Virus genome (UHGV): UHGV-0140083
Strand: one strand, 5' to 3'
Source: a virus
DNA: 30,056 nt
Positions within the stretch are counted from its first letter, which is position 1. Each line of letters begins with the position of its first letter. The notes under the pieces are model-generated. The model searched no databases. It was not told the origin of the DNA and was given only the letters and a program-made list of their open reading frames with translations. A program made the position numbers and the translations under genes. This document shows, piece by piece, positions 7,999 through 8,147 of this stretch.

Positions 7999-8100
7999 AT
8001 GTTATCTCTCGTTTATGAAAATCCGTGGACGACGGTTTTTCTGCTGATTGTTGCCAGTTGTTGTCTCAACAGTATTATTGGCGCATTGCGCAACAAGTGA
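7999..8100 (+). CDS. 33-aa hydrophobic membrane peptide (type I toxin-like or holin-like small protein)
   Basis: Not in the ORF track (below 60 aa). ATG at 7999 preceded by strong SD aagaggag (7982-7989); product MLSLVYENPWTTVFLLIVASCCLNSIIGALRNK has one predicted TM helix and a basic C-terminus; followed by a terminator. Confidence 0.45.
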   Translation: MLSLVYENPWTTVFLLIVASCCLNSIIGALRNK

Positions 8101-8121
8101 CCTCAATAAATCTGATTCAAA

Positions 8122-8147
8122 TCGGCACCAAAAATGCCGGTTTTTTT
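8122..8147 (+). terminator. Rho-independent terminator closing the right-arm transcription unit
   Basis: Stem cggca / tgccg with an A-rich loop, followed by ttttttt (8141-8147). Confidence 0.5.

Follow-up and report, generated by a model that had tools for sequence, protein, structure and literature searches.

TisB and DinQ of Escherichia coli are single-helix, membrane-inserting peptides, ~30 residues long, that are transcribed under the control of LexA boxes. SidA of Caulobacter is an SOS-induced membrane division inhibitor of about 29 aa. In prophage e14, YmfM is described by a preprint as an SOS-induced division inhibitor (bioRxiv 10.1101/2020.11.19.390815). The cos-proximal hotspot of phage P2 between gpA and gpQ carries accessory and anti-phage genes such as old and tin (Rousset et al. 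2022, PMC9122126). In phage 186, the SOS operon has the order p95, tum, t95a, orf97, t95b (U32222.1). The 186 record gives t95b as the terminator of the p95 transcript and states of Orf97, a protein of 243 aa, that it 'blocks 186 infection'.

The window analyzed here is the whole 30,056-nucleotide stretch of virus genome UHGV-0140083 and, by its sequence, forms the right end of a prophage of the 186 type (Eganvirus, Peduoviridae). Gene A is followed by a p95-type promoter with a LexA box, a 60-aa gene, a DinI-family gene, a hairpin element, a gene of 69 aa, another copy of this element, a 64-aa gene, a 33-aa ORF, a terminator, cos, two cargo genes and the portal gene (Table 1). The 33-aa ORF is likely to be a real, translated accessory gene of this prophage that encodes a 33-residue single-pass inner-membrane protein.

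Table 1. Positions of the features discussed. Positions are those of the window except in the last three rows, which give positions in the loci of relatives.
Feature	Position	Strand	Remarks
Replication gene A	4495-6717		
p95-type SOS promoter	6768-6811	+	-35 TTCCCA 6768-6773, -10 TACTGT 6792-6797
LexA box TACTGTATAAATATACAGTA	6792-6811	+	Overlaps the p95-type -10
60-aa gene	6831-7013	+	First operon cistron; phrog_1993
DinI-family gene	7017-7250	+	Pfam DinI, E 6e-23
68-nt hairpin element, copy 1	7253-7320	+	Module junction; direct repeat family D1; dG -27.1, z -6.0
69-aa gene	7446-7655	+	phrog_11386
68-nt hairpin element, copy 2	7658-7725	+	Same element after orf97 in 186
phrog_2266 remnant, 19 codons	7731-7790	-	MSKNLELFNQQTAKAFATL and stop here, MSKNLELFNQQTAEIFAVLW... 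in L004
64-aa gene	7789-7983	+	phrog_2454, PHROG E 7.5e-40; usual upstream partner of the small ORF
Shine-Dalgarno AAGAGGAG	7982-7989	+	Overlaps the stop codon of the 64-aa gene
Small ORF, 33 aa	7999-8100	+	Predicted small membrane protein with one TM helix, residues ~10-30
Intrinsic terminator	8119-8147	+	Orthologue of 186 t95b; aligned to annotated t95b
cos cohesive end GGCGTGGCGGGGAAAGCAT	8308-8326		Identical to the 19-nt cos of 186 (record positions 1-19)
Cargo gene 1	8436-9254	+	272 aa; phrog_13337, faint DUF7947
Cargo gene 2	9251-9976	+	241 aa; phrog_8999
Portal gene	10007-11053		Opposite strand
Lysis cassette, holin	16552-16848		phrog_175
Lysis cassette, endolysin	16604-17332		Range spanned by the ORF
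Lysis cassette, spanins	17302-17887		
Annotated minus-strand ORF, L004	2735-3004	-	Public record
Annotated minus-strand ORF, L002	2769-3041	-	Public record
Annotated minus-strand ORF, L001	2915-3085	-	Public record

The right-end operon, terminator and cos

In an alignment with 186, the promoter and its LexA box match the -35, -10 and LexA site recorded for p95 at almost every base. The motif CTGT-N8-ACAG occurs once in the whole window, at the LexA box. As in the 186 SOS operon, a homologue of the C-terminal half of Tum is present; the DinI-family protein is 47% identical to residues 71-145 of this antirepressor. A homologue of the 60-aa gene is annotated 'UV induction of bacteriophage' in the record of Salmonella phage SEN1. 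The 60-aa first cistron was considered as the N-terminal half of Tum and was rejected, as BLASTP finds no similarity to 186 Tum.

The 33-aa ORF is the last cistron of the right-end unit, which extends from the p95-type promoter to the t95b-type terminator. In a scan of 6700-8500, no T-run terminator is found between the promoter and the 33-aa ORF, and transcription would read through both 68-nt hairpin elements to reach it. A t95a-type terminator follows tum in 186, whereas the DinI gene of the window phage is followed by the T-less hairpin element instead. The slot from the hairpin element to t95b is occupied by orf97 in 186 and by the 64-aa gene and 33-aa ORF in the window phage. Unlike the window phage, 186 contains neither of these two, and Orf97 is unrelated.

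The two copies of the 68-nt element are 82% identical, with folding energies of -27 and -29 kcal/mol (z -6 and -5) and no T-run. The element directly follows the DinI and 69-aa genes in the window and orf97 in 186. It also appears in the locus of phage 186 (L003) from ~2398 and in that of SEN1 (L055) from ~2003 and ~2408. In total, 60 of 106 fetched loci contain it, in the plus orientation only and at the junctions of swapped modules. It may be an mRNA-stabilizing or processing hairpin, or a recombination linker.

The LexA box is not a general feature of these loci. In retron-type relatives, the locus does not contain one, and SOS control is, on this comparison, particular to the lineage of the window and not universal among relatives. 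In a large group of relatives, the SOS module is swapped for three genes, which encode a 51-aa protein, an HTH protein and a reverse transcriptase of ~316 aa, and this set lies upstream of the block formed by phrog_2266, the 64-aa gene and the 33-aa ORF. Loci of the reverse transcriptase type include L004, L006, L054 and many IMG/VR loci, and are present in E. coli O157:H7 strains and in Klebsiella phage ST147-VIM1phi7.1. The phrog_2266 gene (145 aa) is intact in most relatives, where it diverges from the 64-aa gene and the two starts overlap in CATG. Consensus scans show no evident promoter for either of them. The 64-aa family has no significant match in a profile search of the PDB.

A hairpin with a T-run had been reported downstream of the ORF, and both the terminator scan and folding recover it. 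The stem is formed by 8119-8127 and 8135-8143 (core 8122-8127/8135-8140), with a loop of 7 nt and a run of seven T residues at 8141-8147. Its folding energy (-10.1 kcal/mol) is unexceptional relative to shuffled sequences (z -1.2). The stem and T-run are conserved in nearly all relatives and the loop is variable, as seen in ~40 distinct variants. Homology with 186, PSP3, EtG and Yersinia phages starts at this hairpin and continues to cos, and the 186 record reaches its right end at window position 8307. The orthologous terminator of 186 is at the same distance from an identical cos. Since the homology extends from the hairpin to cos and the hairpin aligns to t95b, the terminator belongs to the operon and not to the ORF. 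The description of it as the ORF's own terminator is not congruent with this placement, nor with its retention in nearly all phages where the ORF is missing or decayed. A leader peptide or attenuation function was also considered, but the ORF stops 18 nt short of the hairpin, its amino acid sequence is conserved and the terminator outlives decayed copies of the ORF, so this idea was rejected.

Between cos and the portal gene, the window contains a cargo pair in the P2-type defense hotspot. The N-terminal stretch of the second cargo protein is weakly similar to ZorB/MotB, and the pair has no PADLOC system match. Near-identical prophages contain different cargo or none in this position.

The 33-aa frame in the window and its relatives

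The 33-codon frame begins with the ATG at 7999, ends with TGA at 8098-8100 on the plus strand and gives MLSLVYENPWTTVFLLIVASCCLNSIIGALRNK. The translation is exactly that quoted in the earlier note. The near-consensus Shine-Dalgarno sequence at correct spacing and the position just upstream of cos are likewise as the note described: AAGAGGAG lies 9 nt before the ATG, and the ORF ends 207 nt from cos. This Shine-Dalgarno sequence overlaps the TAA stop codon (7981-7983) of the 64-aa gene, and the gap between the two genes is 15 nt. The window contains seven ATG ORFs of at least 30 aa led by a strong Shine-Dalgarno sequence, compared with 3.2 +/- 1.8 in shuffled sequences. The pattern by itself is not beyond chance, and the case for the 33-aa ORF therefore depends on its relatives.

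The ORF had also been called unannotated. This holds for the RefSeq versions of the three E. coli genomes that were inspected, in keeping with the systematic oversight of small phage proteins. It does not hold for gene callers, which predict the exact peptide in 426 database blocks, nor for some GenBank records (ESK34579.1, SUG19416.1 and QBQ71544.1, the last from ST147-VIM1phi7.1). Among the ten loci listed for the exact peptide, the cargo between cos and portal varies. The peptide has no match in Pfam (E<=0.1), PHROGs, NCBIfam or PADLOC, the 64-aa protein likewise has no match among the PADLOC defense models, and a full-text literature search finds no match to the peptide string.

Relatives were collected through the neighboring 64-aa gene. 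It is followed by the small ORF or its remnant in the 103 loci obtained, and the DNA beyond its stop codon occurs in 63 distinct versions. Because sampling was through this neighbor, there is no bias towards intact small ORFs. Only two loci come from genome contigs; the diversity is in viral and metagenome contigs. The relatives come from Escherichia, Salmonella, Klebsiella and Citrobacter. Among 1.84 billion cluster representatives searched, the only matches are near relatives and one spurious repeat protein, so the family is taken to be narrow and confined to enterobacterial 186-like phages.

The frame is kept in 46 of the 63 distinct sequences (81 of 103 loci) and is disrupted, decayed or replaced in the other 17 (22 loci). 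Single-base deletions kill it in L020, L032 and L077, and an internal stop is present in L081. Loss of the start codon with further decay is seen in L029, L035, L051, L052, L085, L101 and L103. In L090, L095, L097, L098, L104 and L105, the ORF is replaced or absent. The earlier note had counted frame disruption in close relatives against the gene and conservation in related prophages in its favor. Both are present: the 17 disrupted sequences stand beside 46 intact ones that show frame-specific purifying selection. Together, the intact and lost copies are better matched by an accessory gene that phages can do without than by no gene at all. The gene is evidently dispensable and has been lost repeatedly, and with 17 of 63 sequences disrupted, selection on it is weak or conditional.

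Substitutions were counted by Fitch parsimony on a neighbor-joining tree of 39 distinct intact DNA versions. The ORF frame has 58 synonymous changes at 22.7 sites and 63 non-synonymous ones at 73.3 sites, which gives a moderate omega of ~0.34 (binomial p=5e-9), with a slight favor to this frame from the choice of the intact set by peptide motif. In the remaining five frames, omega is 0.68-1.5 with p>=0.03. Changes at the three codon positions number 40, 24 and 57. The pairwise pN/pS of 0.37 is the lowest of the six frames; within the L006/L087 clade, the pairwise ratio is up to 0.75. The peptide is ~73-85% identical in relatives where the 64-aa neighbor is down to 56-63% (L054, L078, L091 and L093; counted from the sequences).

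Several further features point to selection on translation. The codon of Ser3 is TCT in most relatives and has switched to AGC in L093. A Shine-Dalgarno motif (GGAG, AGGA or GAGG) and the ATG are both kept in 41 of the 46 distinct intact relatives. In the other five, the change of AAGGA to AATGA removes the Shine-Dalgarno sequence and thereby creates an in-frame ATG one nucleotide beyond the stop codon of the 64-aa gene. In L084, the canonical ATG has become AAG, and the frame is still open from this upstream ATG. The ORF also persists in SEN1, together with its Shine-Dalgarno sequence, although the 64-aa gene is deleted there.

These features bear on a non-coding reading of the interval, according to which the ORF is fortuitous and the stretch is the 3' UTR of the 64-aa gene, a short RNA that ends at t95b, or else DNA required close to cos. 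The neighboring cos-proximal DNA is strongly conserved though non-coding, the frame is lost in 27% of distinct sequences, and the first 30 nt vary little even synonymously. Codons 2-11 have a pS of 0.09 compared with 0.28 in codons 12-22 and 0.16 in codons 23-33, which hints at an additional nucleotide-level constraint on the first ten codons. However, no conserved RNA structure that accounts for the low variation is found at 7999-8030, and the RNA hairpin considered in the 5' part of the ORF (8009-8032) is broken by the common variants SW9 and V13I. The DNA shared with 186, PSP3, EtG and Yersinia phages is from the terminator onward only, so the ORF stretch is outside the common cos region. 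A sigma-70 promoter-like sequence within the ORF, TTGCCA-16-TATTAT (8051-8078, plus strand, 10/12 matches), recurs in the two diverged lineages L004 (2773-2800) and L054 (3053-3080), but its -10 is destroyed by the variant I26V, which is found in 13 of 27 distinct peptides. Because so common a variant spoils the -10, a ~60-nt RNA that starts from this site and ends at t95b is unlikely. The excess of synonymous changes is restricted to one frame, and both the switch between Ser codon families and the compensatory upstream ATG are hard to account for without translation. The non-coding reading is accordingly given little weight, and it is the frame-specific comparative data, not the pattern of start signals, that raise the ORF above chance. 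The ORF is very probably a real, accessory gene for a small membrane protein.

On the minus strand, an ORF is annotated across the same interval in relatives by PGAP and by phage submitters and forms a PHROG family, phrog_6595. Examples are WP_001177885.1 (89 aa, phrog_6595), CPTMidge_047 of phage Midge and the 'aI protein' of SW9, and in one of the three RefSeq genomes this poorly conserved antisense ORF is annotated instead of the 33-aa ORF. That it is the true gene is the least probable of the readings considered here. The longest minus-strand ORF has 34 aa in the window and varies from 3 to 115 aa among relatives; of 68 distinct sequences, just 14 have one of at least 89 aa. Omega in the reverse frames is 0.68-0.95, and the ORF would cross the terminator and cos-proximal packaging DNA. 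The phrog_6595 ORF is probably a spurious annotation over the interval of a real small ORF.

The predicted peptide and its possible classes

The earlier description of the peptide, a single transmembrane helix followed by a short basic tail, stands. Kyte-Doolittle hydropathy averages 2.23 over residues 12-30, and R31 and K33 form the tail. Among the 27 distinct peptides, L2, Y6, W10, T11, T12, F14, L15, C22, S25 and I27 are invariant and E7, N8, P9, S20, N24, G28 and R31 are near-invariant. By the positive-inside rule, the acidic YENPW head with E7, the hydrophobic stretch W10-L30 and the basic R31/K33 tail suggest an N-out, C-in topology. Under this predicted topology, the small or polar residues S20, C22, N24, S25 and G28 are in the cytoplasmic half of the helix, where they would form a surface of the sort used for helix-helix packing. 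The hydrophobic moment of W10-L30 is only 0.08, so the helix is non-amphipathic and looks more like a simple membrane anchor than a pore-former of the amphipathic type.

The earlier note had compared the peptide with type I toxins of the Ldr, Hok and TisB type. In such toxin-antitoxin systems (Hok/Sok, Ldr/Rdl, TisB/IstR, DinQ/AgrB, Ibs/Sib, ShoB/OhsC), a membrane-depolarizing toxin is curbed by an antisense or overlapping small RNA. The format of the peptide is that of these toxins, with 33 aa (under 60), a single hydrophobic helix and a basic tail, and the operon of the window lineage has a LexA box, as is the case for tisB and dinQ. The minus strand of the window contains a single candidate promoter for the antisense sRNA that had been suggested, TTTTCA-16-TATTAT from 8021 to 7994. 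However, this site is missing from L004, L054, L017 and L002, and no minus-strand site is common to the lineages in scans with custom and standard consensus sequences; an antitoxin RNA might instead act in trans. No toxin family in Pfam matches at E<=0.1, and neither NCBIfam nor PHROG gives a match. An Rfam search at E<=10 over 6600-8500 gives chance-level eukaryotic, viral and archaeal matches and no antitoxin RNA. The helix is not amphipathic, and the ORF is an operon cistron with an exposed consensus Shine-Dalgarno sequence 15 nt after another gene and no long structured leader, unlike toxin loci that stand alone and are repressed at the level of translation. It also has no obligate partner. 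In SEN1, the 64-aa gene is deleted and the Shine-Dalgarno sequence, ORF, terminator and cos are retained; in many other phages, the 64-aa gene is found beside a dead small ORF. The comparison with type I toxins is not borne out by these data, and a toxin of this kind is improbable.

A holin-like role had been suggested as well. A holin, antiholin or other lysis accessory peptide could likewise be small, with one transmembrane helix and a charged C-terminus. However, a full canonical cassette of holin, endolysin and spanins is present ~8.5 kb from the ORF, at 16552-17887. The peptide has no lysis or holin match in PHROG or Pfam, the ORF is in the SOS/accessory operon and not in a late operon, and it is often lost. 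A lysis function is thus very improbable, even more so than a type I toxin.

Possible role and comparison with known systems

For a translated accessory gene, the following course is proposed. The peptide would be made when the operon is transcribed, with its translation coupled to, or following closely after, that of the 64-aa gene. It would be inserted in the inner membrane and might act through helix-helix contact at the conserved small or polar positions, with itself or with a host membrane protein. A moron-type role in the gpA-gpQ hotspot, either in phage exclusion or in the modulation of a host membrane process when the operon fires, is the best guess on the basis of the hotspot position, the mosaic distribution and the repeated loss. 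A narrower proposal is that the peptide, by itself or jointly with the 64-aa protein, is a hitherto unrecognized, SOS-switched effector that excludes superinfecting phage or halts a host membrane process such as division or membrane energization during induction. This proposal is tentative and rather improbable. If true, the peptide would correspond in function to TisB, DinQ or SidA but have no RNA antitoxin.

The peptide belongs to a narrow new family within the already known class of small phage membrane proteins. The gpA-gpQ region has been mined for defense by annotated proteins only, so this and similar peptides would have escaped such surveys. If the peptide is active, the induction programme of 186 would gain a membrane peptide linked to LexA. 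If it is inactive, the ORF is still a well-supported case for the correction of Peduoviridae genome annotation.

Among the known systems, the peptide is similar to SidA and YmfM in that it is short and would be induced by DNA damage. There is no homology, and the similarity is one of functional analogy only. With TisB and DinQ, it shares a small one-helix format and a LexA box upstream. It differs from them in sequence, with no similarity, and in the antisense RNA partner, which is neither detected nor conserved here. The window ORF is embedded in an operon and has an open Shine-Dalgarno sequence. Its predicted helix is uniformly hydrophobic, whereas those of TisB and DinQ are charged or amphipathic, and LexA control is absent from many relatives. 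The likeness to the P2 hotspot is one of position and content. The ORF is between gene A and the portal gene, next to cos, and the content of this region is mosaic among related phages. It is different from the P2 arrangement in that the module of the 64-aa gene and 33-aa ORF is on the gpA side of cos, within the SOS operon.
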